Assembly (NCBI GenBank): GCA_965261595.1
Contig: CBDHDG010000006.1
Coordinates: 1,248,001-1,312,000 of the forward strand
Source: a bacterium
Lineage (GTDB): Bacteria > UBA8248 > JACPRG01 > G963555815
Direction of reading: 5' to 3'
DNA: 64,000 nucleotides
Position numbers and translations under genes: made by a program. The stretch's first letter is position 1. Every line of letters starts with the position of its first letter. Below, piece by piece: positions 1-16,887 of this stretch. The notes beneath the pieces are model-generated. The model saw nothing but the letters and a program-made list of their open reading frames with translations. It was not told where the DNA came from and ran no database searches.

Positions 1-581
1 AAAAGGGTCATGCGAAGGCAGTCGAGCATTTTGCGCCGAAGTCAGTATTTGAAGATCGGCGCAACCACTGGCCCAACTTGCTGTTAGCGTGCGCACAATG
101 CAACGGCAAGAAAGCTGATCAATTTCCAGAGATGCTTACCGATAACCCAGATGAGGTTAAGCTGATTTATGTCAATAGATCCAATAAGAAGGCAACCAGT
201 AAGAAGGTTTCGGCATTGATCGATCCAACAAAAGAGACGAATCCGGAAGCTCATCTGACCTACCACCTCGACCTACATGACGGTTGCCTTGTTGGTCAAA
301 TATACCCGCGTAACGGCAGTCCACAGGGAAAAGCAACGATTTCAGTGATTGGATTGGATCAGGCCCATATTCATAGGCTTCGCAGAGACCATTTTAGGAC
401 CCTTGTGATCAGCTACATTAATCTACAGGAAGCGAGAGATGAGAACAGACGCGAGGTGCTACGGCAAAAGTTTGAAAAACTTATTTCCCGGGACGGAGTA
501 TTTGCAGGCTTGGCGAGAGAATTCTCCCGAGAATATAAAATCGATGATGAATACGGTCTCGACGTCCTCGACATTACCTAA
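1..581 (+). CDS. HNH endonuclease, TIGR02646/PtuB-like; 5' end lies outside the window
   Basis: Frame is open from base 3: KGHAKAVEHFAPKS...W.NLLLACAQCNGKKADQFP, the HNH core. Downstream LIDP and G..TI..IGL motifs fit this family. Confidence 0.8.
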   Translation, partial: KGHAKAVEHFAPKSVFEDRRNHWPNLLLACAQCNGKKADQFPEMLTDNPDEVKLIYVNRSNKKATSKKVSALIDPTKETNPEAHLTYHLDLHDGCLVGQIYPRNGSPQGKATISVIGLDQAHIHRLRRDHFRTLVISYINLQEARDENRREVLRQKFEKLISRDGVFAGLAREFSREYKIDDEYGLDVLDIT

Positions 582-595
582 GAGAGAGGGAATGG

Positions 596-985
596 ATGAG
601 TGAAACGGATGCGTCGCTCCACTATGGTCTTGAATTGATTCTGGACCTCCATGAATGTAATGCGTCGCGATTCACTCGACGTGACATTACGACATTCTGC
701 AGAGAGCTTTGCGATTTGATCGACATGGAGCGCTGTGATCTACATTTTTGGGATGACGTTGGCGTGCCTGAGAATGAGCGGCAGACACATCCCAAAACGA
801 AAGGGACGAGTGCGGTTCAATTCATTCTTACGAGTACAATCGTAATTCACACTCTTGACTTGATGAAGGCCGCCTACATCAATATTTTCTCCTGCAAAGA
901 ATTCGATACTGATGAAGCTACTCAGTTTACCGCCAAATGGTTTGGCTCGACCGACTGGACAGCAAACGTGGTAGTTCGTCGCTAA
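596..985 (+). CDS. S-adenosylmethionine decarboxylase-like (pyruvoyl-dependent) proenzyme
   Basis: YGLELILDLHEC, GTSAVQFILTS-TIVIH (predicted self-cleavage at T/S) and YINIFSCKEFD match small SpeD-type AdoMetDCs. Purine-rich RBS upstream. Confidence 0.75.
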   Translation: MSETDASLHYGLELILDLHECNASRFTRRDITTFCRELCDLIDMERCDLHFWDDVGVPENERQTHPKTKGTSAVQFILTSTIVIHTLDLMKAAYINIFSCKEFDTDEATQFTAKWFGSTDWTANVVVRR

Positions 986-998
986 AGGAAAGGATCAT

Positions 999-2375
999 AT
1001 GGCGGACGTTTTTGAGCGACAGTGTAGTGTCTCTGTTTCAGACAATGTAGTCGGCCTGGTTGCTCATCTAGAACGAGCATGTGCGGAGTCCTTATTGGAC
1101 GCGGTTCCCGTTCGCTTCGTTGTTAGTTCCAGTTCGCTTCGCTCTTATCAATGTGAACTGGCCGTGGTCAAGCGTAAAGTGCTGCGTGGGCGAATCCCTA
1201 TTGCGTCGATTTTTGAATTTAGGCAACGAGTAACGCAGCGCCCAGAGAAATTCAATGTCGTGCTCATAGTGCCAACGGGAATCGGTACTGAAATTGGCGG
1301 CCATGCGGGGGACGCCGGGCCGGTGGCGCGGATGCTTGGCGAGGTGTCCGACACGCTTGTTTTGCACCCCAACGTCGTGAACGCTTCTGATCTTAATGAG
1401 ATGCCTTCGAATGCACTCTATGTCGAGGGCAGCGTCCTAACACGGCTACTGATGGGTACCGTTGGCTTGGAACGGGTACGGTCAAATCGCGTCTTAGTGG
1501 TCGTTGACGATCATAACGATGAGATCTTCGTCAATGCGGCTGTAAATGCTGTTAACGGTGCGAGATCAGCATACGGGTTGTCGTGTCCAGAAGTCGTATG
1601 CCTCGATCCTCCAGTACGATTGAAAACCGGATATTCTCCATCTGGAAGAGCAGCAGGTCAGGTCGAACGGATTGAAGGCCTATGCGATCTCCTTGATAAA
1701 CGGAACGGATTATATGATGCCGTGGCAATCTCATCCGTCATCGATGTGCCAGACCTATATCACCAAGGATATTTTGATGCGGCTGGTACGATGGTGAACC
1801 CCTGGGGGGGTGTAGAGGCAATGCTGACTCATACACTGTCCAGCATGTATAACGTTCCGACCGCGCACTCTCCGATGTTTGAATCTAGAGAAATTGCGAA
1901 CATGGATCCTGGGATCGTTGATCCCCGCATGGCAGCCGAAGCCGTTTCGGCGACATTCCTCCAATGTACGCTAAAGGGTCTCCAGTGGAGTCCACGAATC
2001 GTTACAGACGAGAATGCGATGAACAACTCCGGCATCTTTACAGCAGCCGATGTGTCCTGTCTTGTGCTTCCGGACGGCTGTTTGGGGCTTCCGACAATTG
2101 CGGCTCTTGAACAGAACATTCCGGTTATTGCCGTGTCGGAGAACTCGAATTTAATGCGAAATGATCTTTCGGCGCTTCCATGGAGAGCGGGACAATTTCA
2201 CCGGGTTTGCAACTATTGGGAGGCTGCTGGTGTTATTGCAGCCATGAGGGCTGGAATCGATCCAGCGGCCGTGCGACGTCCACTTTCAGCGACCCACGTT
2301 TCGCGTTTCAAGGCTAAATCTAGTGTCTCTTGCCTAGAGACTGATCTTGCGGCAAAGGTGGATACGCCGAAATAG
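999..2375 (+). CDS. DUF3326 family protein with an N-terminal extension of about 80 aa
   Basis: LIVPTGIG.EIGG.AGDA, HPNVVNASD, YVEG, NPWGGVEA and P.MAAE motifs are typical of DUF3326. RBS AAGGA; starts 13 bp after the previous stop. Confidence 0.75.
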   Translation: MADVFERQCSVSVSDNVVGLVAHLERACAESLLDAVPVRFVVSSSSLRSYQCELAVVKRKVLRGRIPIASIFEFRQRVTQRPEKFNVVLIVPTGIGTEIGGHAGDAGPVARMLGEVSDTLVLHPNVVNASDLNEMPSNALYVEGSVLTRLLMGTVGLERVRSNRVLVVVDDHNDEIFVNAAVNAVNGARSAYGLSCPEVVCLDPPVRLKTGYSPSGRAAGQVERIEGLCDLLDKRNGLYDAVAISSVIDVPDLYHQGYFDAAGTMVNPWGGVEAMLTHTLSSMYNVPTAHSPMFESREIANMDPGIVDPRMAAEAVSATFLQCTLKGLQWSPRIVTDENAMNNSGIFTAADVSCLVLPDGCLGLPTIAALEQNIPVIAVSENSNLMRNDLSALPWRAGQFHRVCNYWEAAGVIAAMRAGIDPAAVRRPLSATHVSRFKAKSSVSCLETDLAAKVDTPK

Positions 2376-2549
2376 AAAGCAAGTAGTTCTTCTGTCCTCG
2401 TAACCTTCTTGGCTTATGAATAAGTTGATGGTTTCGGTGAGCCTCCGTCCATAGTGTCGATACCCGAGATGAAGGGTTCGGTATAGAACCTGCCTCCCTA
2501 AATTCGAACCTCCAGATTGGCTACGCAATTGCGGAAGGGGATGATTGTA

Positions 2550-2600
2550 TGACCTGCCCCTCCGTTTAGTACCAAACGTAAAGTTAGAGTCGTAGGCAAA
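2550..2600. mobile_element. IS3-family terminal inverted repeat remnant
   Basis: TGACCTGCCCCTCCGTTTAGTACCA resembles the IS end at 51903 (TGACCTGACCGGCGTTTTTTGTACCA). Confidence 0.5.
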
Positions 2601-2739
2601 GCTTCAGTTTGGCAAGTTCAGTGGACCGTAGCTCTTTTCGTCTTGACGCGATCTACGACTAGGCCCGCTACGCCGCAGAACCGAGAGTGCCTCATCACGC
2701 CTCCCCGATAACTCACCAAGGTCTGCCATGTCATTTTCT

Positions 2740-4383
2740 CTTCGGTGCGCGGGCGACGGCGCGCCATGTCGATCAGCGAGCGGTCGGGAAACACGATATA
2801 GGCCGGCACGCCGCGCTCCTTGGCGAGTTGCAGCCGCAACGCCTTGAGCACGGCCAGCAGCGCCGCCTGATCGTGGCTGAGCGGATGTTCGGGTTCTTTC
2901 CCGCGCGTCTCGCGCGGCGCCGCGGCCGGCCGTGCAACCACCGTGTCCTCGCGGTAGAGGAACTCGTCCTCGCCCCTCAGCAGGGCGTGGCCCTTGCCGG
3001 TGAGCGCGAGCCCGCCATAGCTCGCGATGTCGAGCCGCAGAAACCCGGTCGCCACCATCTGGCGGATCAGCGAGCGCCATTCGTTCTTGCCGCGCGCCGC
3101 GCCGACCCCGAAGGTCGGCAGCCGGTGATGACCGGCGCGCACGATCTTCTCGGCCTCGGTCCCGCGCAGGATATCGATCACATGCGCCGCGCCGAACCGT
3201 TCGCCCGAGTGGTAGACCGCCGACAGGATCTTCTGCGCATCCTCGGTCCCGTCGACGCGCTCGGCCGGGTCGAGGCAGGCATCGCAATTGCCGCAAGGCT
3301 CGATCCGCTCGCCGAAGTAATCGAGCAGAGCCACCCGGCGGCAGGACGGCGCCTCGCAATAGCCGAGCAAGGCGTCGAGCCGCTTGTGCTCGCGCCGCTT
3401 GCGCTCAGCGCCGGCATCCTCATCCTCGATGAACTGCCGCCGCATGCGGATATCGGCCAGCCCATAGAGCATGTGGGCCTCGGCGGGCGCGCCGTCGCGT
3501 CCGGCCCGGCCGATCTCCTGGTAATAGGCCTCGATGCTGCCCGGCAGATCGGTGTGGAAGACGTAGCGCACGTCCGCCTTGTCGATCCCCATGCCGAAAG
3601 CGATGGTGGCGACGATGACGACGCCCGGATCGGTCATGAAGACGTTCTGGTGCGCCTCCCGGTCCTCCTTCTCCATGCCCGCGTGATAGGGAAACGCCCG
3701 CACTCCGTCTTCTTGCGCGACAGGCAGTAGACGATACCGCTCTCGCCTTCATGGCGCGCGATGAAGCTCAGCAACTGCCGCTTCCACTCGCGTTTCATCT
3801 CCACCGACAGCTTGATGTTCGGACGGTCGAAGCCGAGCACGAACTGCTCGACCTCGTCGGCGGTCGCCGTCAGCGCGGCGACCGGAACCCCGGGAAAGAG
3901 CTCCCTGATCCGGCACAGATCCTCGTATTCCGGACGGAACGCCGGACCCCACTGCGAGATGCAGTGAGCTTCGTCAATGGCGAAGAGCGTTACCGGCAGC
4001 CGCGCCAGCGACGCCAGCATGCGCCCGGTCATCAGGCGCTCCGGGGCCATGTAGAGAAGCCGCGTCTCGCCCGCGGCGGCGCGCTTCCAGGCGGTGACGT
4101 TGCCCTCGCGGCCGTTCGCCGAGTTGATGCTGTCCGCTGCGACGCCCGCGAGCCTGAGCGCCGCGACCTGGTCCTGCATCAGCGACACCAACGGCGACAC
4201 CACCACCGTCAGGCCGTCCATGACCAGCGCCGGGATCTGGAAGCACAGCGACTTCCCCGATCCCGTCGGCATCACGGCGAGCGCGTTGCGGCCCGCCAGC
4301 AGCGCCTCGATCGCCGCCTCCTGGCCCGGCCGGAACCCCTCGAACCCGAACACCTCGCCCAGCACCCGGCGCGCGGCCGCCAT
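2740..4383 (-). pseudogene. recQ: DNA helicase RecQ, frameshifted, internally deleted and 3'-truncated
   Basis: MPTGSGKSLC, DEAHC.SQWG..FRP.Y, ATIAFGMGIDK, YYQEIGRAGRDG, RQC cysteines and an HRDC start. Split over two ORFs at about 3700 and flanked by IS scraps. Confidence 0.85.
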
Positions 4384-4434
4384 CGGCGTCCATCCTGAGC
4401 CCGCGGCGGCAACTCGCCCCGCCATCAGCAACAA

Positions 4435-4926
4435 CCCGAGCGGACCAACTCGACCATCTGGCGCCGGTACTCCGGCACGTACTGCGGATGAGTTTTCGAC
4501 ATCAGGACACCTCCTACGCACAGTCTGAAGGTGTCCACTGAAACGGGTCAACTCCACTAAGTCCAGGCAACGCGAAGGGTTCGTTGACGTTACTCAAGCA
4601 CGCGATGTGCTCGGCCGTGATGGACAACCGCAGGGGTGAGCATCACGATTCCGGCATGGCGATGCTCGTTGTTGTACCAAGGGAAGAACCACCGGCAGAA
4701 GGCGATCACGGCGGTGATGTATTCGAAGCGTCCGGCCCACAGCCAAGGTCAACACCACCGGACCATCCCCGATGCTAGCTGGAGCGGCGAGCCAAAGGGA
4801 AAGACATACCCTCCGGGAGGGGATCCTATCCCCAGCGTATGGGGAAGGCTTTACGTCCACCGGCTATCGTCCGCCTCTGTGATAGGGGCGACAGCATAAT
4901 CTGCCCACTGAAACGGGGCAACTCCA
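4435..4926. mobile_element. Mosaic of IS3-family fragments (left end with orfA start, transposase C-terminal scrap, right end)
   Basis: IR ...CCACTGAAACGGG(T/G)CAACTCCA occurs at about 4556 and 4926, matching the ends of the IS at 52259-53669. Minus strand gives MSKTHPQY.PEYRRQMVELVRSG and FFPWYNNEHRHAGI. Confidence 0.7.
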
Positions 4927-5030: not shown

Positions 5031-7646
5031 CTAATTTTTCCGGCGACTCCGAATTCCTTTAACCCAGTCCTCAAGCGCTTCGATGTCCTCTTTAAGCTCG
5101 CTCGGTTCGGGAAGTGATGCATTTTCTGCAGGAGATTGATCGTGACCCGTAAGCCACTTCGAGCATTTTGTCATCCCATCTTCGAGCGCTTTTAAATCAT
5201 CAGTGCAGATGTCAGCTAGTTGGTCTGCTTGCTTGGTCTGGATGGTGGGCCGGTACCGTTCAACGGTTCCGTCCAAGAGCACTTCCTCGAATCCCCGTTC
5301 CCACGCTTCTCGAAGGAGACCGTATATGTTCGATACGTCACGCTCGTACTTCTCCTGGTTTCCGTTCCGATATGTCTTGTCCGCGTCCTGCAATAGATCC
5401 TTCAAGTGACCGATGCGAGCCTTGACCTTCATCGCAGCCCACGGCAGCCGCTGGGAGGACAAGCCCGCGCTCGTCGGGTCTCTGCGCAAGTACTGGTGTT
5501 CGAGGTTGACGCCAAGGGCTTCAGCCTTCTCCACCAGCGCTAGAAGGAAAACGATGTCGTGCGTGAAGACAATTACCTGCCGAGACTGCGACTCGACGAC
5601 TAGACGCTTCGCTACATTCCCACGCCAATTGTGATCGAGCGACGAGACCGGGTCATCAAAGAGGATGGCCGACTGATCGGCGGCAGTACTGAGTTCCGCG
5701 AAGAACGACGCGATTGAAAGACACCGAGCTTCGCCCTCGCTCACGACCTTGGACACATCGGCCCCCGGCGCTCGCCTTAGCTGTAGCTTATGGTAGAGCG
5801 CACCACGAGACCCGCCAGCGTCCACCATTTGAACCTCAACGTGATGGAATTTGAGCGTGTCCAGCTCTTCCGCAAAGCTCCTGGTCAGTTGCTCGGTGAC
5901 TGCGCGTCTCGTAACGTCGCTGCTCTTGAGCGTAACCGCATTTGTCCGTGTTTCGTCAATGCACACTTGGTAGGCAGCAATCTTCTTCTTGCGTTCGATT
6001 GCTTCCAGGACGTCACGCAAGTGGTCTGCTAGCAACTGTCGCGCCTCAAGTTCGTTCAACTCGTTTCTTAGCTCGCCGATCGCCTCTGGTTGGTTCGCCT
6101 CGCGAAGTTGTTTCGCCCGATCTCTCAGATTCTCGATATAACTCGTCAATGTGTGCACGTTGAGCGACTGAGCGGGCAGATTCTTGGGGCACGGTAAGCC
6201 CTTGGTTAGCGCTTCGTTCAATTGCTTTCTTCGGGTCTCCGCTGTGTCCAGACACGCACGAACCGCTTCAGCAAGATCAGAGTTGTCCAGTTGAAGCTCG
6301 TCGAGTGCTTCAGTGGCTGGCTCGTCCAGAACGAGCACGCCGTTGATCTGCGAATGCCTCTCGTGGTATCCGGCCGCCGCGCTATCGTAGTCGCCCTGAA
6401 CGGCTGAAGTGAGGAACTCCTGGAACTTCCGCAATCGACGCATGCCCTCCTCGGTAAGTTCTTGCTGGCATAGGACGCAGCGTGAATCCTCTTCGGTGAA
6501 CGGGAAGGCGTGGTCCGGATACGCATCGGTTTTTGAGAACCGCTCTGCGGCATCCCAGAGTTTTCGCCATGCGTCTGACCCAGTGTTTGGCAACGGTTGC
6601 TCTTTGAAGCTCGCCCTTTGTAATTCCTCCACAACACGCCGAGTCTCGTTCGTTCGGTCGTGCGCCGCGAATAGCCCCTCGATCGCGGTATCAGACAGCA
6701 CTTCGCCAGCAGTCTTGACTCTCGTAAATAATACATTCGCGCGCTCGGCACGGAGCACGATTGCCCGAGCAGTCTTTTCGGGATCGTCTGACTGTAGATC
6801 GCGAATCCTCTTCCGCACTTCCTCGCTGCGCGCCTTCTCAGCTTCGGTCAAGGAAGCGATCTTCTCGACTGACGCCGGATCGGTGAGTGAGGTCAGATCT
6901 GTGATCAAATCGTGGACGGTTGTTCTCTCAGCAACATCGGGGAATTGGAGCTTCTCTGACTCCAGCGCATTTCGTTCCTTTTCCAAGGTTTTCCTGACAG
7001 CTTCGCATGCGTCAGAAAGCTTGTCGAACAAGTCGAGACCCATGGGACGAAACGCGACATCGGTCTGTTGTGAGACATACACGCTCGCGCAATGGTGATC
7101 GAATACGCTAACTCTCGAAAGGAACGCGTTAGGGGGCTGATCATCATCCCATAAATGATCACGCGACTCTTCATCAGCCGTGAACTTTATGGTTGCAGAT
7201 GGACGCCCCGGAATAGCTCCAGACACAACGTTCCCTAGAATCTCTTCGGCACCGCGCGCTCGGCACGCACGTTTCAAGATGCGCGTGTATCCAGACTTGC
7301 CAGCAGCATTTGCGCCATAAACGACTGTCAACTGAGGCCCGAATTCGACCGTCTGATTTTGGGCAAGGGCGTTGACTCCGGCGTGATGTGTGAGCGATTG
7401 CAGTGACACGGGCTTCGTCCGGGCATCAGGCTGAGGGAGGTGGCTTGCGTCGAGTGGCACGGGTTTCGCCCTATCACCCAGTCCGTGTCGGGATTTGCAG
7501 AGATTCGACAGCTCCCTGATGTCTGTCTCGTCGAGTTCACCTCTCGCGATCAATCGTCGTAATGCATCACGTTGCCAGGCCGGACGGCCTAATGACCACT
7601 CAAGGATCTCGTTAAGGACATTAACTCTCACCACGTATTTCTCCAA
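5031..7646 (-). CDS. Rad50/SMC-like ABC ATPase with zinc hook and probable C-terminal HEPN-like domain (RloC-like architecture)
   Basis: Walker A GANAAGKS, coiled coil with central CVLC hook, signature SEGE, Walker B ILFDDP, H-loop FTHD, helical C-terminus (LREAWER...GHD). Confidence 0.75.
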   Translation of the reverse strand: MEKYVVRVNVLNEILEWSLGRPAWQRDALRRLIARGELDETDIRELSNLCKSRHGLGDRAKPVPLDASHLPQPDARTKPVSLQSLTHHAGVNALAQNQTVEFGPQLTVVYGANAAGKSGYTRILKRACRARGAEEILGNVVSGAIPGRPSATIKFTADEESRDHLWDDDQPPNAFLSRVSVFDHHCASVYVSQQTDVAFRPMGLDLFDKLSDACEAVRKTLEKERNALESEKLQFPDVAERTTVHDLITDLTSLTDPASVEKIASLTEAEKARSEEVRKRIRDLQSDDPEKTARAIVLRAERANVLFTRVKTAGEVLSDTAIEGLFAAHDRTNETRRVVEELQRASFKEQPLPNTGSDAWRKLWDAAERFSKTDAYPDHAFPFTEEDSRCVLCQQELTEEGMRRLRKFQEFLTSAVQGDYDSAAAGYHERHSQINGVLVLDEPATEALDELQLDNSDLAEAVRACLDTAETRRKQLNEALTKGLPCPKNLPAQSLNVHTLTSYIENLRDRAKQLREANQPEAIGELRNELNELEARQLLADHLRDVLEAIERKKKIAAYQVCIDETRTNAVTLKSSDVTRRAVTEQLTRSFAEELDTLKFHHVEVQMVDAGGSRGALYHKLQLRRAPGADVSKVVSEGEARCLSIASFFAELSTAADQSAILFDDPVSSLDHNWRGNVAKRLVVESQSRQVIVFTHDIVFLLALVEKAEALGVNLEHQYLRRDPTSAGLSSQRLPWAAMKVKARIGHLKDLLQDADKTYRNGNQEKYERDVSNIYGLLREAWERGFEEVLLDGTVERYRPTIQTKQADQLADICTDDLKALEDGMTKCSKWLTGHDQSPAENASLPEPSELKEDIEALEDWVKGIRSRRKN

Positions 7647-9289: not shown

Positions 9290-10732
9290 GAGCCTGTCCC
9301 ATTCATAGTTGAAGGTTGAGAAAAAGAGGTGGCGGTTCACTCCTGCCGACTCGGTTAGAATCGGGTTGGCAAACATTCAAAGAGGAGGAACCGCCATGAG
9401 TGAAGCTTACCAGATCATCGAGAAGAAAGAGACCCAAAGGTTGGCCGCCTTTGTGGCGGAGCACGGGCAGGCGTTTTTTCCTCTGGTGTCGCTGGTGGAG
9501 CAGTCCCAACTGGCGGTGGAGGACCTGATGGACGTCATGGGCCGGGCGGGCCTGGAGGCCGTGCTTTTGCTGTCGGCCAAGGGCTTGACGGGCGCGCCGC
9601 ATCCAGGCAAGCGGGGTGGCGAGGTCCGCCGGCACGGCAGCCAGGGGGGCCGGGTGACCCTGAAGGGGCGCAAGCTGAAGGTGAGAAAGCCGCGGCTTCG
9701 CCGCCGGGGCCAGGGTCGGGGCGGGGAGGTGGAGGTGCCGGCGTATGCGGCCATGCAGGCCGACCCCGGGCTGGGGGAGCGGATGCTGGATTTGCTGATG
9801 CGAGGGGTCTCGACGCGGAACTACGCGGCCGTTCTTCCCGAGCTGGCCGAGACGGTGGGGGTGTCGAAGTCGGCCGTGAGCCGGGAGAGCATCGAGGCGG
9901 CCGAGGCGAAGCTGCGGCGTCTTTGTGAGCGGCGTTTTGACGACATCGACCTCCTCATCCTCTACCTGGACGGTCTGCGCTTCGGCGCGCATCACGTCAT
10001 CGTGGCCGTTGGGGTGGACACACGGGGCCAAAAGCACGTTCTGGGCCTGAGGTCGGGCGCCACCGAGAACGCCACGGTCGTGACGGCGCTTCTTGAGGAG
10101 TTGGTGGAGCGCGGCGTGCGGCCCGGGCGGCGTCGGCTTTTTGTCATCGACGGCTCGAGGGCGCTTCGTGCGGCGATTGACCGGGTGTACGGGGACGACA
10201 ATCCGGTGCAGCGGTGCCGCAACCACAAGGTGAAGAACGTGATGGACCACCTGCCAGAGGAGTTGAAGGATCCGGTGAAGGCGACGATGAAGGCGGCCTG
10301 GCGGCTGGCGCCGAAGGAGGGGATTGCCCGTCTGCGCAAGCAGGCCCGGTGGCTTCAGATCGAGCATCCGGACGCGGCCGCCAGCCTTTTGGAGGGTCTG
10401 GAGGAGATCTTCACCGTCAACCGCTTGGCTCTTCCGCCCGGCCTTCGGCGCTGCCTGGTGAGCACGAACCTGATCGAGAGTCCCTGTTCGGGGGTGCGGA
10501 TGCGCACCCGGCGCGTCGGCCGCTGGCGGGACGGGGCGATGGTGAAAAGGTGGGCCGCTTCCGCCTTCCTCGCCACCGAGAAGAACTTCCGTCGCCTGGA
10601 CGGCTACCGGGACCTGTGGATCCTGAAGGCCGTTCTGGACGAGCCCCGCTTTGACACCCGAGAGGAGGTCGCATAAGGTGAACCACACACGGACCGCCGC
10701 CTCAAACCTTCAACTGAATTCGGGACACCCTC
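9290..10732 (+). mobile_element. IS256-family element, complete
   Basis: Imperfect IRs GAGCCTGTCCC / GGGACACCCTC. 8-bp TSD AGGTGAAG at 9282-9289 and 10733-10740. Confidence 0.9.
9396..10676 (+). CDS. IS256-family transposase
   Basis: GVSTR, LYLDG, FVIDG, QRCRNH and STNLIES motifs; RBS GGAGG. Confidence 0.92.
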   Translation: MSEAYQIIEKKETQRLAAFVAEHGQAFFPLVSLVEQSQLAVEDLMDVMGRAGLEAVLLLSAKGLTGAPHPGKRGGEVRRHGSQGGRVTLKGRKLKVRKPRLRRRGQGRGGEVEVPAYAAMQADPGLGERMLDLLMRGVSTRNYAAVLPELAETVGVSKSAVSRESIEAAEAKLRRLCERRFDDIDLLILYLDGLRFGAHHVIVAVGVDTRGQKHVLGLRSGATENATVVTALLEELVERGVRPGRRRLFVIDGSRALRAAIDRVYGDDNPVQRCRNHKVKNVMDHLPEELKDPVKATMKAAWRLAPKEGIARLRKQARWLQIEHPDAAASLLEGLEEIFTVNRLALPPGLRRCLVSTNLIESPCSGVRMRTRRVGRWRDGAMVKRWAASAFLATEKNFRRLDGYRDLWILKAVLDEPRFDTREEVA

Positions 10733-10781
10733 AGGTGAAGGCCGACACCTTCACAGTTCGGTTCAAATTTTCAAATTGGAG

Positions 10782-11768
10782 ATGATGATGATTTACGCAT
10801 TGAGGATATCCGACGACGCAGAGGTTGTAGGAAGCGTGTTCAATTCGCTGCAGGGCGGGGAAGGACGATTTGGTTGGAGTTACGTCCAGACAGCCGACCT
10901 TCGGAAGTTGCGCGAGCGGGTCAACGAACGCGGCTGGGAGTCGCTCACCGAGGAAGAGAAGGATTGCTATCAGGCTTTTCTGCTGGATCTGCAAGACGGC
11001 GACCATGTCGTTTACATAAACGTGCCCGAATGGGGCCAATGCACCTTGGCCACAGTGGCGGGGGAATACGAATGGCGGTTCGAAAACGATGACTTCAATC
11101 ACCGGTTCCCGGTGGATCCGCAGTCGGTCAGAACGTTCAAGCGAAAGGCCGACATCGTCGCGGCGGCGCTTAGCCGGCGGCTGAGCCTGCAAGGCAGATG
11201 GTGGAGGGTTTACGCAGAGCAGGAATTCGATCGGTTGCTCGAATCGTTACGCGAGGGCGTCGTACCTGGAGAGCGAACCGCCGAGACAAATGTCAAGGAA
11301 CTGGCGCAGCAACTCCGGCCAAAGCTTATAGAGATTGCAGGGACAATTCAGCACACGCACCCCGGTAAGGATCTCGAAGCACTGATGGAGCGAGTGTTCC
11401 GAAACGTGCCGGGCGTGAGGGAAGTGAGGCGGCAGCAAGGAAGAGCGGATCACGGGGCCGATCTTGTGGTGGAAATGGAATACAGAACGATACCTGGTCT
11501 GGTGGAAGCGAGGACGTTGGTGGTGCAAGTCAAGTCCTTTTGGAACGAGCTCGTGAAAACGAAGGCAGTTAAAGATATAAGGCGAGCATTCGAGCACCAT
11601 AGCGACGCGGATATGGGATTGATAGTTTCGACTGCGAAACGTGCCGATGAGGACTTTGAACGCGCGCTGGAGAAACTGCAGGAAGAAATCAAGAAACCCG
11701 TATCCTTGCTGATCGGGGCGGATCTGGCAGCGTTTGTCTTGCGCTATGGAGAGGCGCTTTTGGAGTAA
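10782..11768 (+). CDS. Mrr-like restriction endonuclease domain protein
   Basis: C-terminal LEAL...DHGADLVV...VVQVKS (D...QxK) Mrr_cat motif. N-terminal domain not identified. Confidence 0.7.
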   Translation: MMMIYALRISDDAEVVGSVFNSLQGGEGRFGWSYVQTADLRKLRERVNERGWESLTEEEKDCYQAFLLDLQDGDHVVYINVPEWGQCTLATVAGEYEWRFENDDFNHRFPVDPQSVRTFKRKADIVAAALSRRLSLQGRWWRVYAEQEFDRLLESLREGVVPGERTAETNVKELAQQLRPKLIEIAGTIQHTHPGKDLEALMERVFRNVPGVREVRRQQGRADHGADLVVEMEYRTIPGLVEARTLVVQVKSFWNELVKTKAVKDIRRAFEHHSDADMGLIVSTAKRADEDFERALEKLQEEIKKPVSLLIGADLAAFVLRYGEALLE

Positions 11769-11863
11769 ACGGGGAGGCGATCAGGACGACCTATACGCAC
11801 GCACAGGGCGTAAGAAAAAGATGGCCTCAAGTTGGTAAATTTGAGGCTACAGCCAGTCCGATG

Positions 11864-11982
11864 TCAATAGGCGAAGTCGATTCTCGGTCATCGCCTCCGC
11901 AATGATGCTTCCCACCTTTTCCGCCGCTTCGACAAGATGCCCGTCAGCGAGGTGGGCGTAACCCGCCGTGGTCTGGTGCCGC
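11864..11982 (-). pseudogene. Tyrosine integrase C-terminal remnant
   Basis: Minus-strand translation RHQTTAGYAHLADGHLVEAAEKVGSIIAEAM; cut off by the IS21 left end. Confidence 0.65.
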
Positions 11983-12109
11983 TGTAAACGGCGGTGTAAA
12001 ACTGTCCCACTGAGGCGGTCGGACATTCTGGCCGCGGCGGTCTAAAGATGGACCGCTCTTTGGTCTTCCTTCAGGTTGTGCAGGATACGACCTGAAGGGA
12101 GGCTGGAGG

Positions 12110-13609
12110 ATGTACTCAGTGGAACTGTACGCACGGGTTCGGCACGCCTGCCACGTAGAAGGGATGAGCATCCGTGAAGCGGCGCGGGCGTTTGGTTTGC
12201 ACCGGGACACGGTGCGCAAGATGCTGCGGTTTTCGATACCGCCCGGGTATCAGCGGAGTCATCCCCGGGCGAGGCCGAAGCTGGATCCGTTTACGGGTGT
12301 GATCGACCACATCGTGGAGGGGGACCGGAAGTGTGTGAGGAGACAGCGTCACACAGCCAAGCGGATCTTCGAGAGGCTGCGCGATGAGCACGGTTTCACG
12401 GGCGGTTACAGCATCGTGAAGGACTACGTGCGGGAGCGGCGGTTGCGGTCCCAGGAGATGTTCGTTCCCCTGGTCCACCCACCCGGCCATGGCCAGGCGG
12501 ATTTTGGCGAGGCCCTGGCGGAGATTGCCGGGGTGGAGGGGAAGGTATCGTTTTTCACCTTCGATTTGCCCCACAGCGACATGGGTTTCGTGAAGGCCTA
12601 TCCTGCGGAGAGGACCGAATCCTTCTGCGACGGTCATAACGCGGCCTTCGCCTTCATCGGCGGTGTCTCCCACAGCATTCTCTACGACAACACCAAGCTT
12701 GCGGTGGCGCGCATCCTGGGCGCTGGGAAGCGTCAGCGCACCCGGGCCTTTAGTGAGTTGCAGTCCCACTACCTGTTCAAAGAACGTTTTGGCCGTCTGG
12801 GCAAGCCGAATGACAAGGGGAAGGTCGAGAACCTAGTGGGCTATGTCCGGCGGAACTTTTTCGTTCCCATCCCGCGCTTTGAGAGCTTCGAGGCCCTCAA
12901 TGCCCACCTGGAGGAGCAGTGCCGGAAGCGGTGGGGAGCCCGCCTGCGTGGGCACAGAGAGAGCATCGGCGAGCGCTTTGAGCGGGACCGGCAGGTCCTT
13001 TTGCCGTTGCCGCCGGTGCCGTACGACGCCTGTGAGAAGAGCGGTACGCGGGTGAGCTCTCTGTCTTTGGTGCGCTACCGGGGCAACGACTACTCGGTTC
13101 CCGTGGCTTACGGCCACCGTGAGGTGCTGGTTCGGGGCTACGTGCACGAGGTGGTCATCACCTGCGGGACGGAGGAGATTGCCCGTCACCGGCGCTCCTA
13201 CGAGTGGGAGGACCTGGTCTTCAACCCGCTGCATTACCTGGCGCTGATTGAGAAGAAGATCGGTGCACTGGATCAGGCGACGCCCCTGGCCGGGTGGGAG
13301 TTGCCCGAGGCATTCGGCACGCTGCGCAGGCTGCTTGAAGCGCGCATGGGCAAGGCCGGCAAGCGGGAGTACGTCCAGGTCCTGCGGCTGCTCGAGACGT
13401 TCGGGTTGGAGGAAGTTGACGCCGGGGTCCGGGATGCCCTGCGGCTGGGAACCATCGGCTTCGATGCGGTCAAACACCTGATGCTGTGCCGCATCGAGCG
13501 CAGGCCTGCCCGGCTGAACCTGGAGCTCTATCCCTATCTGCCGCGCGCCCGGGTTGGGACAACCTCCGCCCGGGCCTACCTGGACCTGCTCACGGGGGTG
13601 CGGCCGTGA
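12110..13609 (+). CDS. istA: IS21 transposase IstA
   Basis: N-terminal HTH; GQADFG, ILYDN and KGKVEN DDE motifs. Confidence 0.92.
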   Translation: MYSVELYARVRHACHVEGMSIREAARAFGLHRDTVRKMLRFSIPPGYQRSHPRARPKLDPFTGVIDHIVEGDRKCVRRQRHTAKRIFERLRDEHGFTGGYSIVKDYVRERRLRSQEMFVPLVHPPGHGQADFGEALAEIAGVEGKVSFFTFDLPHSDMGFVKAYPAERTESFCDGHNAAFAFIGGVSHSILYDNTKLAVARILGAGKRQRTRAFSELQSHYLFKERFGRLGKPNDKGKVENLVGYVRRNFFVPIPRFESFEALNAHLEEQCRKRWGARLRGHRESIGERFERDRQVLLPLPPVPYDACEKSGTRVSSLSLVRYRGNDYSVPVAYGHREVLVRGYVHEVVITCGTEEIARHRRSYEWEDLVFNPLHYLALIEKKIGALDQATPLAGWELPEAFGTLRRLLEARMGKAGKREYVQVLRLLETFGLEEVDAGVRDALRLGTIGFDAVKHLMLCRIERRPARLNLELYPYLPRARVGTTSARAYLDLLTGVRP

Positions 13610-14397
13610 AGGAGACTCCCCAGGTGCTCCTGGCCCATCACCTCAAGGCGCTCAAGCTGCCCACCTTCGGGAGGGAATACGACAAGGTCGCCCGGCAGTG
13701 CGCCACCGAGGGGGTCGACCCCGTGCGTTTTTTGATGCGCCTGTCCGAGCTGGAGCTGATTGACCGGGAGCGCCGGATGGTGGAGCGGCGAATCAAGGCG
13801 GCGCGCTTCCCGGCGGTCAAGAGCCTGGAGCGCTTCGACTTCCTGGCTCTGCCCTCCCTCAACAAGACGCTGGTTGTGGAACTGGCGAGGTGTGAGTACA
13901 TCGAACGGCGCGAGAACGTGATTGCCCTGGGCAACAGCGGCACAGGCAAGACCCACATCGCTCTGGGTCTCGGGCTTACGGCGTGTCAGAAGGGGTTGTC
14001 CGTCGGCTTCACAACCGCCGCCGCGCTGGTCAACGGGTTGCTCGAAGCGCGTGACGAAAGGCGTCTGCTGCGCCTTCAGAAGCAACGGGCCGCCTACAAG
14101 CTTCTGATCATCGATGAACTGGGCTTCGTGCCCCTGTCCAAGACCGGCGCCGAACTGCTGTTCGAGGTCTTCAGCCAGCGCTATGAGCGCGGCTCTATCC
14201 TGGGGACGAGCAACCTGCCGTTCGACGAGTGGACCGAGATCTTCGGCTCCGAGCGGCTGACCGGCGCCCTGCTCGACCGCCTGACGCATCACGTCCACAT
14301 CCTGGAGATGAACGGCGAAAGCTATCGGCTCAGGCAAAGTAGGAAACGGCGCTCAAACAAACAAGCAAAGCCTCAAGACTCCGTCCCAATGGAGTGA
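13606..14397 (+). CDS. istB: IS21 helper ATPase IstB
   Basis: GNSGTGKT, LLIIDELG, LLDRLTHH; GTGA overlap with istA. Confidence 0.92.
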   Translation: MKETPQVLLAHHLKALKLPTFGREYDKVARQCATEGVDPVRFLMRLSELELIDRERRMVERRIKAARFPAVKSLERFDFLALPSLNKTLVVELARCEYIERRENVIALGNSGTGKTHIALGLGLTACQKGLSVGFTTAAALVNGLLEARDERRLLRLQKQRAAYKLLIIDELGFVPLSKTGAELLFEVFSQRYERGSILGTSNLPFDEWTEIFGSERLTGALLDRLTHHVHILEMNGESYRLRQSRKRRSNKQAKPQDSVPME

Positions 14398-14494
14398 GGC
14401 CACAACCCAGGAAGGGGGCCCATGGGCCCCCTTCTTCACACACCAGGTGGGACACTTGCCGCCACGCCGGTACACTTTTACTCCGCCCTTGACA

Positions 14495-15255
14495 AGCGGG
14501 CCGTGATGGGCTCCAACAACTTTCGCCACCCATCGGCGCTGTGAACGTTGCCCGGACGCAACATCGCCCCCTCGCAGTCCCCAAACGGGTTGAAGCAGAA
14601 TAAGGGATGGTAGCAGAGGGAACCGAAGTGACCGTTATAGGCAGTCCCTTCCTGCTGTCCGTGCACCCGGCTTTCCGAGCTATCCATGTCCAGGATGACC
14701 CGCTGATGCGGCGTGCGGCTCATGGCCCGCTCTACCCATTCCGCGTTCAGTTGCCTCAGCCTGCTCAGGTTCTCCTCGCTGCAGAGAACTTCAGTCTCGA
14801 ACCGGCTCCATGTGTTGGTACTGGCCGCCTGCTTCTCAAGTGCCCGCCGGCCAACTACGGCTTGCCTGGCAGGGTCTCTCGCCAATCGCTCGGCATCGTT
14901 GGTGTCCTCGTACCCGGCCAGGCGACTATAGACTGACTGGCGCAATAGCGGCACCAACTCATGCTGGACGTTCCGGTCATGACGGATCTCTTGCAAGTGG
15001 GCTGGCGCTCTCACCGTCAAACCCAGCGCATCATCCAACTCCCGGCAGGCCAGCAATCCTGCATCTGAAGTGATTCTGGCTCCGTGAAAGGCAAGCCTCA
15101 GCCCGCGGTTACAATGGACCCTCAATGCCGTCTTTTTCGCTTCACCCATAGGGTTCCCCCGCGAGAACGTGGCAGGGGGAAGCCAATACGCTGATTTTAC
15201 AAGAGAAAGCGCCTTTCGGTCTGTCGAATCTTATGATCCAAATGGGAAATGCGGG
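14495..15255 (-). mobile_element. IS1380-family element, 5' half only, truncated by IS21
   Basis: End CCCGCATTTCCCAT. ORF 15149-14478 has ITSDAGL and LDMDSS, diverged from the full copies. Confidence 0.85.
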
Positions 15256-15674: not shown

Positions 15675-15870
15675 CGGCTTAGGGATCTCACCGTTCAGCG
15701 CCCCAACTAAGTCTGGGTGGTCGACATCTGTTCTCTCCCGATGACCAAGGGGTTCATGTACTTGAGTTATCCCGTTTTGATGGAAAGGTTATGGTTGTCG
15801 CCCCCGCCCTGAGGTGGGCGACAGCCCGTGGACGTGAGTTTTCCCCAGAATCGGTAGATTTAGGATACCC
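15675..15870. mobile_element. Decayed IS3 core fragment plus IS3 right-end remnant
   Basis: LRDLTVQRPN*VWVVDICSLPMTKGFMYL, then GAGTTATCCCGTTTTGATGGAAAG similar to the IR at 52259. Confidence 0.55.
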
Positions 15871-16081
15871 CCGTCCGAACCACGGGCAGCCCGCGGTGGC
15901 CGAGGGGGTCGAATTCCCACCCACCGAAACATTCACCGCAACGACAACTCACCGCCGCAATTTTCCGACGCGCTCTGCGCCGCGAAGAGGCCGAGCCGGG
16001 CCGTGAGCGGGGCGGCGGACGGATGTCCCGGGGAGGACATCTCCGCCTCTCTCAACCACCGGCCCGTAAGGAGACGGAATC

Positions 16082-16399
16082 ATGCGCACGGTCCAGACCC
16101 ATCCCGGCAACGCAAGCACCTTCCTCACCCACCTGTTCGGCCAAGGTCTCGATGACGACCGCTACGTGGTCGAGCGCTTCCAGTCAATGGCTGACGGCGA
16201 CATCCGGCCCCTGCGCACCGGGGGACCAAGGACCAAGGGCCGGCGCAAGGCGCCGGGGACGGTCGCGTCCCGGCAGGCGGTCCGGAAGATGCGGCCCGTG
16301 CGGGACGAGATCATCATTGCAACCGGAATCAACCTCCGGAACTCCGGGGTCCAGTACTGGGGCTGTAATGTTATCTGGCGGAATATGTTGCAGCGATGA
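16082..16399 (+). CDS. Hypothetical protein (copy 1)
   Basis: RBS AAGGAG; identical protein at 24000-24317. Confidence 0.4.
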   Translation: MRTVQTHPGNASTFLTHLFGQGLDDDRYVVERFQSMADGDIRPLRTGGPRTKGRRKAPGTVASRQAVRKMRPVRDEIIIATGINLRNSGVQYWGCNVIWRNMLQR

Positions 16400-16887
16400 C
16401 AGATTCTTCTGACTGCTATGGAAGAAGTCCGGATCGCCGCAACATAACCTTTTGCAATCATAGGGATTTCAGGAAGGCGAACCGAGCGCAATCGGGTCCC
16501 GGCAATCTTTACAACGCAAGCGGTCTGGTACTGCATTCCGTGCGATGGTGAAGATATCGCCACCCCCGAGCGAGCGGTGCCGCCTGGTATGCCTTGATGG
16601 TGTCCGGTTGTGTGAACAGTTCTTTGGACATAGTCGCGTCTCCCTGTTGGTGGAGGCACGATTACGTGCACAGGTGCCGAAAAATTATGTTGCATGAATT
16701 CTACTCAACCTCCTGCTGGACAGAAGGAATTTTCATCGATGCAACATATGGGCTGGATGGCAACGGGATTGTTCTGCGACCGCAAGCAGAAGCACTGATT
16801 GACGTTCTCTGTCAGGACGTCCTGCCGGCCCGGCGCCGGCCGGGCGTCCGTCGTCCCGATTCCAGCCCCGATGGGAGGCGTCCACAG

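Follow-up and report, generated by a model that had tools for sequence, protein, structure and literature searches.

A four-gene Septu operon with a SpeD-like decarboxylase and a DUF3326 protein recurs across phyla

Genes of the locus

The window analysed here, i.e., a whole stretch of 64,000 nucleotides from a bacterial genome (contig bases 1248001–1312000), opens with the end of a Septu-type operon in which genes for a SpeD-like decarboxylase and a protein of the DUF3326 family follow the Septu pair. Three open reading frames (ORFs) were noted on the plus strand by ORF scan, at 3–581 (open at its 5' end), 596–985 (129 aa) and 999–2375 (458 aa), separated by intergenic gaps of 14 nt (582–595) and 13 nt (986–998), with a purine-rich stretch resembling a ribosome-binding site before each ATG. 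The first ORF is the 3' part of ptuB (window 1–581, 192 of 243 codons), assigned by the PADLOC PtuB model; the full gene (243 aa) lies at 15850–16581 of the upstream stretch labelled L002, which takes in the 16 kb preceding the window. Immediately before it, ptuA (428 aa), identified with PADLOC and Pfam, lies wholly outside the window at L002 14567–15853, i.e., from 1433 to 148 nt upstream of the window. The second ORF (window 596–985) encodes a SpeD-like pyruvoyl decarboxylase from a divergent family with the fold of class 1b S-adenosylmethionine decarboxylase (AdoMetDC; PF02675), and the third (window 999–2375) encodes a long-form DUF3326 protein (PF11805) made up of an N-terminal extension of about 85 residues and a two-lobed α/β core. 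Thus, the operon has four genes, ptuA-ptuB-speD-like-DUF3326, of which the window takes in the last three, ptuB only in part. No match to a sigma-70-like promoter was found in the operon region. The original prediction, made from the window alone, described three intact, co-oriented genes with 14- and 13-bp gaps; the orientation and the gaps were as described, whereas the first gene is 5'-open in the window, starting 151 nt upstream of it, and is intact only in the genome.

Both genes of the Septu pair were recognized by PADLOC from their full sequences (PtuA, E = 3.8e-55 over residues 2–403; PtuB, E = 1e-32), and the window fragment of the HNH gene alone matched PtuB with E = 2.6e-22. PtuA also matched Pfam AAA_15, AAA_21 and AAA_23 above their cut-offs and contained the P-loop GDNATGKST in its translation, and PtuB matched Pfam HNH with 25.1 bits (cut-off 21.4). 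The homology of ptuA begins at an internal ATG of its ORF, and the start of ptuB overlaps the stop of ptuA by 4 nt. The best NCBIfam matches were to the retron Ec78 PtuA and PtuB models, both below their equivalog cut-offs (NF041760, 114.8 versus 500; NF041761, 70.9 versus 150), and the locus PtuB was also below the cut-off of TIGR02646. Given the PtuA and PtuB matches, the adjacency of the two genes and their 4-nt overlap, the Septu pair was considered complete and the unit to be one of four genes; judged by sequence, it is a stand-alone pair whose nuclease is encoded by the HNH gene. The original prediction had placed the HNH protein in the TIGR02646/PtuB group and named an upstream ATPase or reverse transcriptase as partners to be sought. 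The ATPase was present in the form of PtuA, but no reverse transcriptase was found among the upstream ORFs and no Rfam family in the 9.5 kb searched (L002 9000–18500).

Recurrence of the four-gene linkage

A search of a species-representative genome collection seeded with DUF3326 yielded 80 loci that were kept. A SpeD-like gene was directly upstream of DUF3326 in 34 of these, a protein of 380–390 aa took its place in 21, and PtuA and/or PtuB lay within 6 kb in 14. The nearest NCBIfam model for the 380–390-aa proteins was carboxynorspermidine decarboxylase NspC (TIGR01047), which they matched below cut-off with E values from 1.4e-74 to 4.1e-80. A second search, for which 11 aligned PtuAs linked to the decarboxylase-DUF3326 module served as seed, yielded 80 kept relatives (29–41% identity), with DUF3326 within 5 kb in 35 (24 SpeD-like, 11 NspC-like); 7 were duplicates of earlier loci. 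PtuA and DUF3326 were thus found together in 42 non-duplicate loci, including the one described here, and a decarboxylase was between or beside them in 41, being SpeD-like in 27 and NspC-like (a pyridoxal-phosphate enzyme) in 14. The gene order was PtuA-PtuB-decarboxylase-DUF3326 in 37 of the 41 and decarboxylase-DUF3326-PtuA-PtuB in the other 4, with gaps mostly in the range of -40 to +88 nt, the exceptions being broken or tandem loci. Apart from the present locus, the module loci (40 plus L004, which is cut by a contig end) came from 15 named phyla, except for 6 that were unassigned. Among long-form DUF3326 rows generally, 86 of 88 adjoined a decarboxylase, and one of the exceptions was cut by a contig end. 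The neighbourhood survey on which the original prediction had staked its AdoMetDC-like/DUF3326/HNH linkage therefore found that linkage repeatedly. The same prediction had listed, as a finding that would speak against it, an HNH gene belonging to an upstream unit while the other two genes have no effect on defence or modification. The HNH gene does belong to such a unit, together with PtuA, yet its linkage to the decarboxylase and DUF3326 recurs, and the system is accordingly one of four genes.

Association of the module with particular PtuA lineages was evident from a quick tree of 81 PtuA rows, in which 32 of 45 rows in one half and 6 of 36 rows in the other were module-linked. The split between the halves had 90% support by the Shimodaira-Hasegawa-like approximate likelihood ratio test (SH-aLRT) and was not starred, and the module label was clustered on the tree (0 of 500 shuffles as good). 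The PtuA of the present locus fell on a long branch in the 36-row half. In a tree of 100 DUF3326 rows, the protein encoded here was in a clade of 12 with 99% support, all Septu-linked and from five named phyla, and the PtuAs of these 12 rows fell in several PtuA clades. Within the long-form clade, the deepest branches were occupied by Septu-linked rows, and alphaproteobacterial and Dehalococcoidia clades were nested inside, an arrangement on which we do not lean because the tree was rooted at its midpoint and the outgroup branches are long. Pairwise distances were correlated between SpeD-like and DUF3326 proteins (rho 0.62, 22 loci) and between PtuA and PtuB (rho 0.35, 33 loci). These findings indicate that the linkage survives the swapping of partners, i.e., of decarboxylase type as well as of PtuAB lineage. 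The module and PtuAB have been re-paired repeatedly yet kept together, which argues for a functional tie without tight protein-protein co-adaptation.

Some variation in the composition of these loci was also noted. Two PtuA-PtuB pairs were present in each of L054 and L145, the second pair following DUF3326 in the former and preceding the NspC-like gene in the latter. Two candidates for replacement of DUF3326 by another gene were rejected, L087 because it contains a decayed copy beside an insertion-sequence integrase and L151 because its different AdoMet_dc gene is followed by ORFs without Pfam matches. The latter locus (L151 6997–8314), in which PtuA-PtuB is followed by this different AdoMet_dc protein (61 bits) with no DUF3326, may be another accessory variant.

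The enzyme pair and its relation to PtuAB

The 129-aa protein matched Pfam AdoMet_dc (PF02675) with 52.8 bits against a cut-off of 25 but scored 22.3 bits against the S-adenosylmethionine (SAM) decarboxylase equivalog TIGR03330, for which the cut-off is 75.65. The top Foldseek match of its structural model (predicted local distance difference test, pLDDT, 86.6) was the Thermotoga maritima AdoMetDC 1vr7 (E = 1.6e-8, template-modelling scores 0.75/0.81), on which it superposed with a root-mean-square deviation (rmsd) of 2.6 Å over 122 columns. Ser80, His85 and Cys100 were invariant in a 14-member SpeD-like alignment and aligned with the ES...H...C residues of 1vr7 and 1tlu, which we take to be the pyruvoyl-forming Ser and the catalytic His and Cys. 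All 14 members of the SpeD-like family read LTS(S/T)IVIHTLD at this site whereas (S/A)ESHL(T/A)IHTWPE is present in the T. maritima enzyme and in the genome's own SpeD, i.e., the canonical ES is replaced by TS and HTWPE by HTLD throughout the family. The genome's canonical SpeD gave only a local match to the SpeD-like protein (14 of 40 residues identical, E = 4e-4). This canonical SpeD (139.8 bits) is encoded in a housekeeping polyamine cluster on another contig (L167; contig C7, 863500–867500, minus strand), where the gene order on the minus strand is SpeD (131 aa), a pyruvoyl arginine-decarboxylase-like protein (155 aa), spermidine synthase (285 aa) and an agmatinase-like ORF. Family matches were obtained for SpeD and spermidine synthase, the other two names being our reading of the translations, and nspC had no match in this genome. 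Because a canonical SpeD/SpeE cluster exists elsewhere in the genome, the decarboxylase-DUF3326 pair is not a housekeeping one, and the remark in the original prediction that no spermidine synthase lies near the operon was borne out.

A third type of decarboxylase was found beside DUF3326 on viral contigs. In IMG/VR, DUF3326 was present at 78 viral loci (57 short and 21 long forms) and was adjoined by a SpeD-like gene at 58. At 11 others (L171, L177, L179–L182, L184, L186, L189, L191 and L202; GC 0.22–0.33) its neighbour was a protein of 240–280 aa; all five of these that were scanned matched PS_Dcarbxylase, the family of phosphatidylserine decarboxylase (PSD). The PSD-like gene follows DUF3326 except in L171, where it precedes it, and nine aligned copies contained an invariant Gly-Ser, presumably the cleavage motif of the PSD family. 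When 79 ORFs from 10 viral loci were compared with PHROG families, the neighbours of the pair were seen to include terminase, portal, major head, tail, ribonucleotide reductase, ligase, helicase and primase genes, and phage copies of the SpeD-like protein matched phrog_3125. Since phage structural and replication genes surround it, the pair is carried by real phages. Searches by tblastn found nothing in 50,697 GenBank phage records with the SpeD-like and DUF3326 proteins and nothing in 72,556 plasmids with DUF3326. Two viral loci had no decarboxylase next to DUF3326; it is preceded in one by an enzyme of the ornithine cyclodeaminase/mu-crystallin family (L170 3939–4865) and in the other by a Glu/Leu/Phe/Val dehydrogenase (L232 4176–5426).

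These results bear on the proposal, made in the original prediction, that the module depletes or senses SAM. In that case the SpeD-like protein would be a true AdoMetDC, acting by depletion of SAM or by production of decarboxylated SAM, and DUF3326 would be a new kind of aminopropyltransferase using the latter. The AdoMetDC fold, the aligned Ser, His and Cys and the Pfam score above cut-off are what such an enzyme would display, but the TIGR03330 score far below cut-off, the TS and HTLD motifs in every family member and the merely local match to a SpeD that the genome keeps in normal form are not. In addition, NspC-like and PSD-like decarboxylases, neither known to act on SAM, fill the same slot elsewhere, and the DUF3326-containing pair PavAB of Paraburkholderia (preprint cited below) makes C5 units, beyond the supply of SAM. 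Accordingly, we rate a SAM-directed role lowest among the explanations considered.

The 458-aa protein matched DUF3326 (PF11805) with 307.8 bits over profile positions 2–336 of 337. Forty-nine columns were invariant in 38 DUF3326 sequences, including PTG..GG..GD and HPN..NASD.NEM, and the Gly-rich PTGIG..IGG.AGD motif to which the original prediction drew attention was indeed conserved, with P92, T93, G94, G100, G101, G104 and D105 invariant in all 38. Short forms of 330 aa lack the N-terminal extension, which takes up residues 1 to about 85. Prediction of the structure, which had been suggested as a source of information, gave a confident model (pLDDT 90.4) but no informative solved relative. 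Thus, Foldseek with this model returned nothing from the PDB at E ≤ 1e-3, a search of ESM Atlas gave no usable match, and the best VIA-align result among 48,161 chains (Z 8.9, lumazine synthase, residues 161–336) reflected a generic flavodoxin/Rossmann-like fold. Two-domain rows of the GT-B-like kind scored near Z 7.8, which is the level of a common arrangement; no chain of carboxy(nor)spermidine dehydrogenase (CANSDH) was listed in the fold searches, and saccharopine reductase appeared with Z 7.2 and an rmsd of 8.1 Å. Because the VIA-align scores are at the level of common arrangements, no function is readable from the fold. Four loci (L076, L078, L079 and L080) contained a divergent clade of DUF3326 (about 35% identity) with an N-terminal extension and no adjacent decarboxylase; there DUF3326 is followed by a protein with adenylation, carrier and thioesterase parts resembling those of nonribosomal peptide synthetases.

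Clues to the chemistry come from the pavABC cluster of Paraburkholderia. In the preprint that describes it (bioRxiv 10.64898/2026.06.12.731819), signals of N-(5-aminopentyl)pentane-1,5-diamine are reported only with both PavA and PavB, the DUF3326 protein, whereas cadaverine is reported in every strain; PavA carries a carboxynorspermidine/lysine-decarboxylase-like domain. The presence of cadaverine in every strain favours condensation followed by decarboxylation over simple supply of a diamine. Of two other papers, one ties PspA operons of the yjf type to polyamine metabolism (PMC11237479) and one describes phage SpeD homologues that shifted from SAM to ornithine or arginine, with low efficiency (PMC9992855). 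The settings of the pair outside defence, described below, likewise suggest that its product is an amine. That three unrelated decarboxylase folds share one partner points to a carboxylated compound, either made by DUF3326 or fed to it, as their common denominator. From this context and the one preprint, the chemistry of the pair is probably aminoalkyl or polyamine synthesis via a carboxylated intermediate rather than depletion of SAM.

The reading that we favour, with a probability of roughly 55%, is that of a four-gene Septu variant in which the PtuAB effector is joined to a two-enzyme amine module, the product of which controls PtuAB. PtuA, an ABC-type ATPase, and PtuB, an HNH nuclease, would act as an ordinary Septu effector pair in the defence role that we infer. 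DUF3326 is proposed to be the condensing enzyme that makes the decarboxylase's substrate, most likely by joining an amino-acid-derived unit to an amine or other acceptor to give a carboxylated intermediate, and the pyruvoyl SpeD-like enzyme would then strip the carboxyl to leave an aminoalkylated, polyamine-like product (e.g., a triamine). By analogy with msDNA in retron-Septu, this product would most likely serve as a small-molecule control ligand of PtuAB that could keep the nuclease off until infection halts its supply, or could tune its activity. The suggestion draws on that analogy and on the exchangeability of the module between PtuAB lineages. In retron-Septu, the added module is reported to sequester and release PtuAB (bioRxiv 10.1101/2025.05.10.653283), and this precedent for PtuAB as a module co-opted by other sensors was counted in favour of control by the amine. 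The idea of aminoalkyl modification coupled to a nuclease, also put forward in the original prediction, fits this chemistry as regards the aminoalkyl group, the target of which may be a small amine or a macromolecule.

Several observations weigh against control of PtuAB by the module. Because the seed PtuAs were module-linked, the proportion of 35 in 80 overstates the frequency of the module among Septu systems, and the module was lacking in 31 of 70 close PtuA relatives with enough flank. The correlation of PtuA with DUF3326 distances was weak (rho 0.15, 33 loci, reached by 26 of 500 permutations). DUF3326 is without a solved relative in Foldseek or VIA-align and without a demonstrated reaction, PavB was likened to the locus protein by family name, and phage SpeD homologues can be plain ornithine or arginine decarboxylases, in which case the decarboxylase would precede the DUF3326 step. 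The enzyme pair is also found without PtuAB, which indicates that it works on its own. Thus, it stood without PtuAB at 5 of 8 other places in the phylum of this genome, and PtuA, PtuB and NspC-like proteins were absent from all 78 viral loci. In marine Alphaproteobacteria the SpeD-like/DUF3326 pair follows DUF350, DUF1190 and a ligase resembling YjfC and glutathionylspermidine (GSP) synthase, twice with DUF2170 and PspA, and in Dehalococcoidia it accompanies DUF350, DUF4178 and an AMP-binding ligase.

Many of the same observations would be expected under the main rival, namely that a two-gene Septu system travels together with a mobile pair of genes that suffices by itself for amine synthesis (an auxiliary metabolic cassette that is also phage-borne), the two sharing islands and perhaps a promoter but with no functional coupling. 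The many settings of the pair without PtuAB, including phage contigs where terminase, portal, head and tail genes surround it, the many related PtuAB pairs that lack the module, the weak co-variation of PtuA and DUF3326, and the fact that at non-Septu loci of the same phylum the pair follows a different protein of about 400 aa are all in keeping with independence. What independence accounts for poorly is the recurrence of the linkage at 41 loci (the present one and others from 15 phyla) with overlapping or nearly abutting genes and a fixed order in 37, its persistence through changes of decarboxylase type and PtuAB lineage and, subject to an unsure rooting, the position of Septu-linked forms on the deepest long-form DUF3326 branches. 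On balance, independent units appear unlikely, if still the most serious competitor. The protein preceding the pair at loci without PtuAB (L257, L260, L261 and L262 in the same phylum, L027 and L057) is conserved, about 400–440 aa long and without a Pfam or NCBIfam match; it is split in L260.

A different kind of coupling would be self-marking on the pattern of restriction-modification, with the pair adding aminoalkyl groups to DNA or tRNA and PtuAB cleaving nucleic acid that lacks the mark. Addition of an amino acid followed by decarboxylation resembles the routes of thymidine hypermodification in phages, a likeness that counts for this explanation, as does the occurrence of the pair among nucleotide-metabolism genes on phage contigs. 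The reported cleavage of the variable loop of tRNA-Tyr by Septu is likewise in its favour. Nevertheless, Pfam and fold searches found no DNA- or RNA-binding domain in either enzyme, the same pair occurs in operons with YjfC/GSP-synthase-like and AMP ligases, which act on small amines, and the PavAB product is a free triamine. We therefore consider self-marking very improbable.

To return to control of PtuAB by an amine, the pair's product may be an "all is well" ligand, such that PtuAB would be silent while the amine is made and would fire when infection stops its synthesis or soaks it up. This specific version is speculative, and we regard it as improbable. If it were true, phages with the short-form pair (SpeD-like and DUF3326 genes adjoin at 58 of 78 viral loci) would supply the ligand as a counter-defence, and host and phage would be contending over a dedicated polyamine, a metabolite with the role of an antitoxin. 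Septu is among the commonest anti-phage systems, and a widespread Septu lineage with a small-molecule synthesis module in its operon would offer a direct handle on the way in which stand-alone PtuAB senses infection. The DUF3326 family, which extends from cyanobacteria and plants to phages, would gain a testable job as the condensing step of an aminoalkylation route, one that any of three unrelated decarboxylases could complete. A single enzyme pair would then link host defence operons, stress operons of the PspA type and auxiliary genes of phages.

Genomic surroundings and comparison with known systems

The operon occupies an island of low GC (0.46–0.54), about 4.1 kb long, that extends from near L002 14500 to window 2600, the GC of the flanks being 0.58–0.71 upstream and 0.65–0.73 just downstream. 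In composition profiles, its 3' end (window 1–2600, no strand) has a GC of 0.465–0.54, which supports the earlier suggestion that these genes were acquired as one unit. Directly before ptuA (L002 11970–13852) are a Mutator transposase broken into two ORFs (Transposase_mut) and a truncated tyrosine integrase that keeps its arm-binding and SAM-like/central parts (Arm-DNA-bind_3, Phage_int_SAM_3); these remnants are likely leftovers of the element that brought the island. No tRNA genes were found in the 18.5 kb upstream stretch. DUF3326 was present in 3 of 30 relatives and was not found in the same-genus genome; in the phylum, it was present in 7 of 51 genomes, including this one.

The defence setting of this Septu locus was evident from a PDC-S06 ATPase and an Mrr-like gene nearby. 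The former, an ABC-type ATPase of 871 aa with a full-length match to the PADLOC candidate system PDC-S06 (E = 5.6e-236), is encoded 2.7 kb from the operon (window 5031–7646, minus strand) and adds a second putative defence gene to the region. The latter (Mrr_cat, restriction-endonuclease-like; window 10776–11768) lies within a mobile-element cluster (window 9309–15149) that also contains a Mutator transposase (window 9309–10676), IS21 istA/istB-like genes (window 12110–14397) and a DDE transposase fragment (window 14478–15149). At the edge of the island, recQ (window 2618–4557, minus strand), a high-GC core gene, is present as two ORFs in different frames that overlap by 70 nt, one with the DEAD domain and the other with Helicase_C from profile position 41, RecQ_Zn_bind, RQC and HRDC. 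Either a frameshift or an assembly error accounts for this split.

In agreement with the original prediction, no described system was found to join these genes. PADLOC 2.0 had no model for the decarboxylase or DUF3326, and a literature search found no paper on Septu with a decarboxylase and DUF3326, none on PtuA with polyamines, and no DUF3326 paper concerned with defence. A co-mention of Septu/PtuA and AdoMetDC was rejected as precedent since AdoMetDC there concerns an unrelated protein. Union of a Septu pair with two probable polyamine-building enzymes is thus a combination of which this search found no published description.

Resemblances to known systems were nevertheless evident on both the metabolic and the defence side. 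Like the pavABC pavettamine cluster, the locus places DUF3326 beside a decarboxylase, PavB being adjacent to the carboxynorspermidine-decarboxylase-like PavA and both being needed for the triamine; PavA is a Rieske-decarboxylase fusion, PavC a JmjC hydroxylase and no nuclease is present, whereas the decarboxylase of the locus is pyruvoyl and SpeD-like. The carboxy(nor)spermidine pathway (CANSDH with the decarboxylase CANSDC/NspC) offers the same logic of condensation to a carboxylated polyamine followed by decarboxylation, and an NspC-like enzyme is the alternative partner of DUF3326, but DUF3326 was without a CANSDH match in either fold search and the NspC-like partners were below the equivalog cut-off. 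Class 1b AdoMetDC/SpeD and its phage homologues share the fold and the aligned Ser, His and Cys, and the phage homologues have changed substrate (PMC9992855); the locus differs in having TS where their aligned cleavage site has ES, and HTLD for HTWPE, and a DUF3326 partner is not mentioned in the excerpt of that paper. The yjfIJKLMC-like PspA/polyamine operons (PMC11237479) contain, in marine Alphaproteobacteria, the same SpeD-like/DUF3326 pair; none of their other genes is at the locus, where the partner is PtuAB.

On the defence side, two types of Septu are known (PMC8565338), one consisting of PtuAB by itself and the other of PtuAB together with the reverse transcriptase of a retron. The locus is like Septu type I in its matches to the PtuA and PtuB models, the adjacency and 4-nt overlap of the two genes and its position on a mobile low-GC island, and unlike it in adding a decarboxylase and DUF3326, which are in no described Septu type. 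It also parallels Septu type II, i.e., the type I-A retrons (Ec78/Eco7: reverse transcriptase, msDNA and PtuAB), in that PtuAB is accompanied by a module, added upstream or downstream, which in the retrons controls PtuAB. The locus differs from these in having no reverse transcriptase ORF or Rfam RNA and scores far below the equivalog cut-offs, and in that the module added to its PtuAB is a metabolic one.

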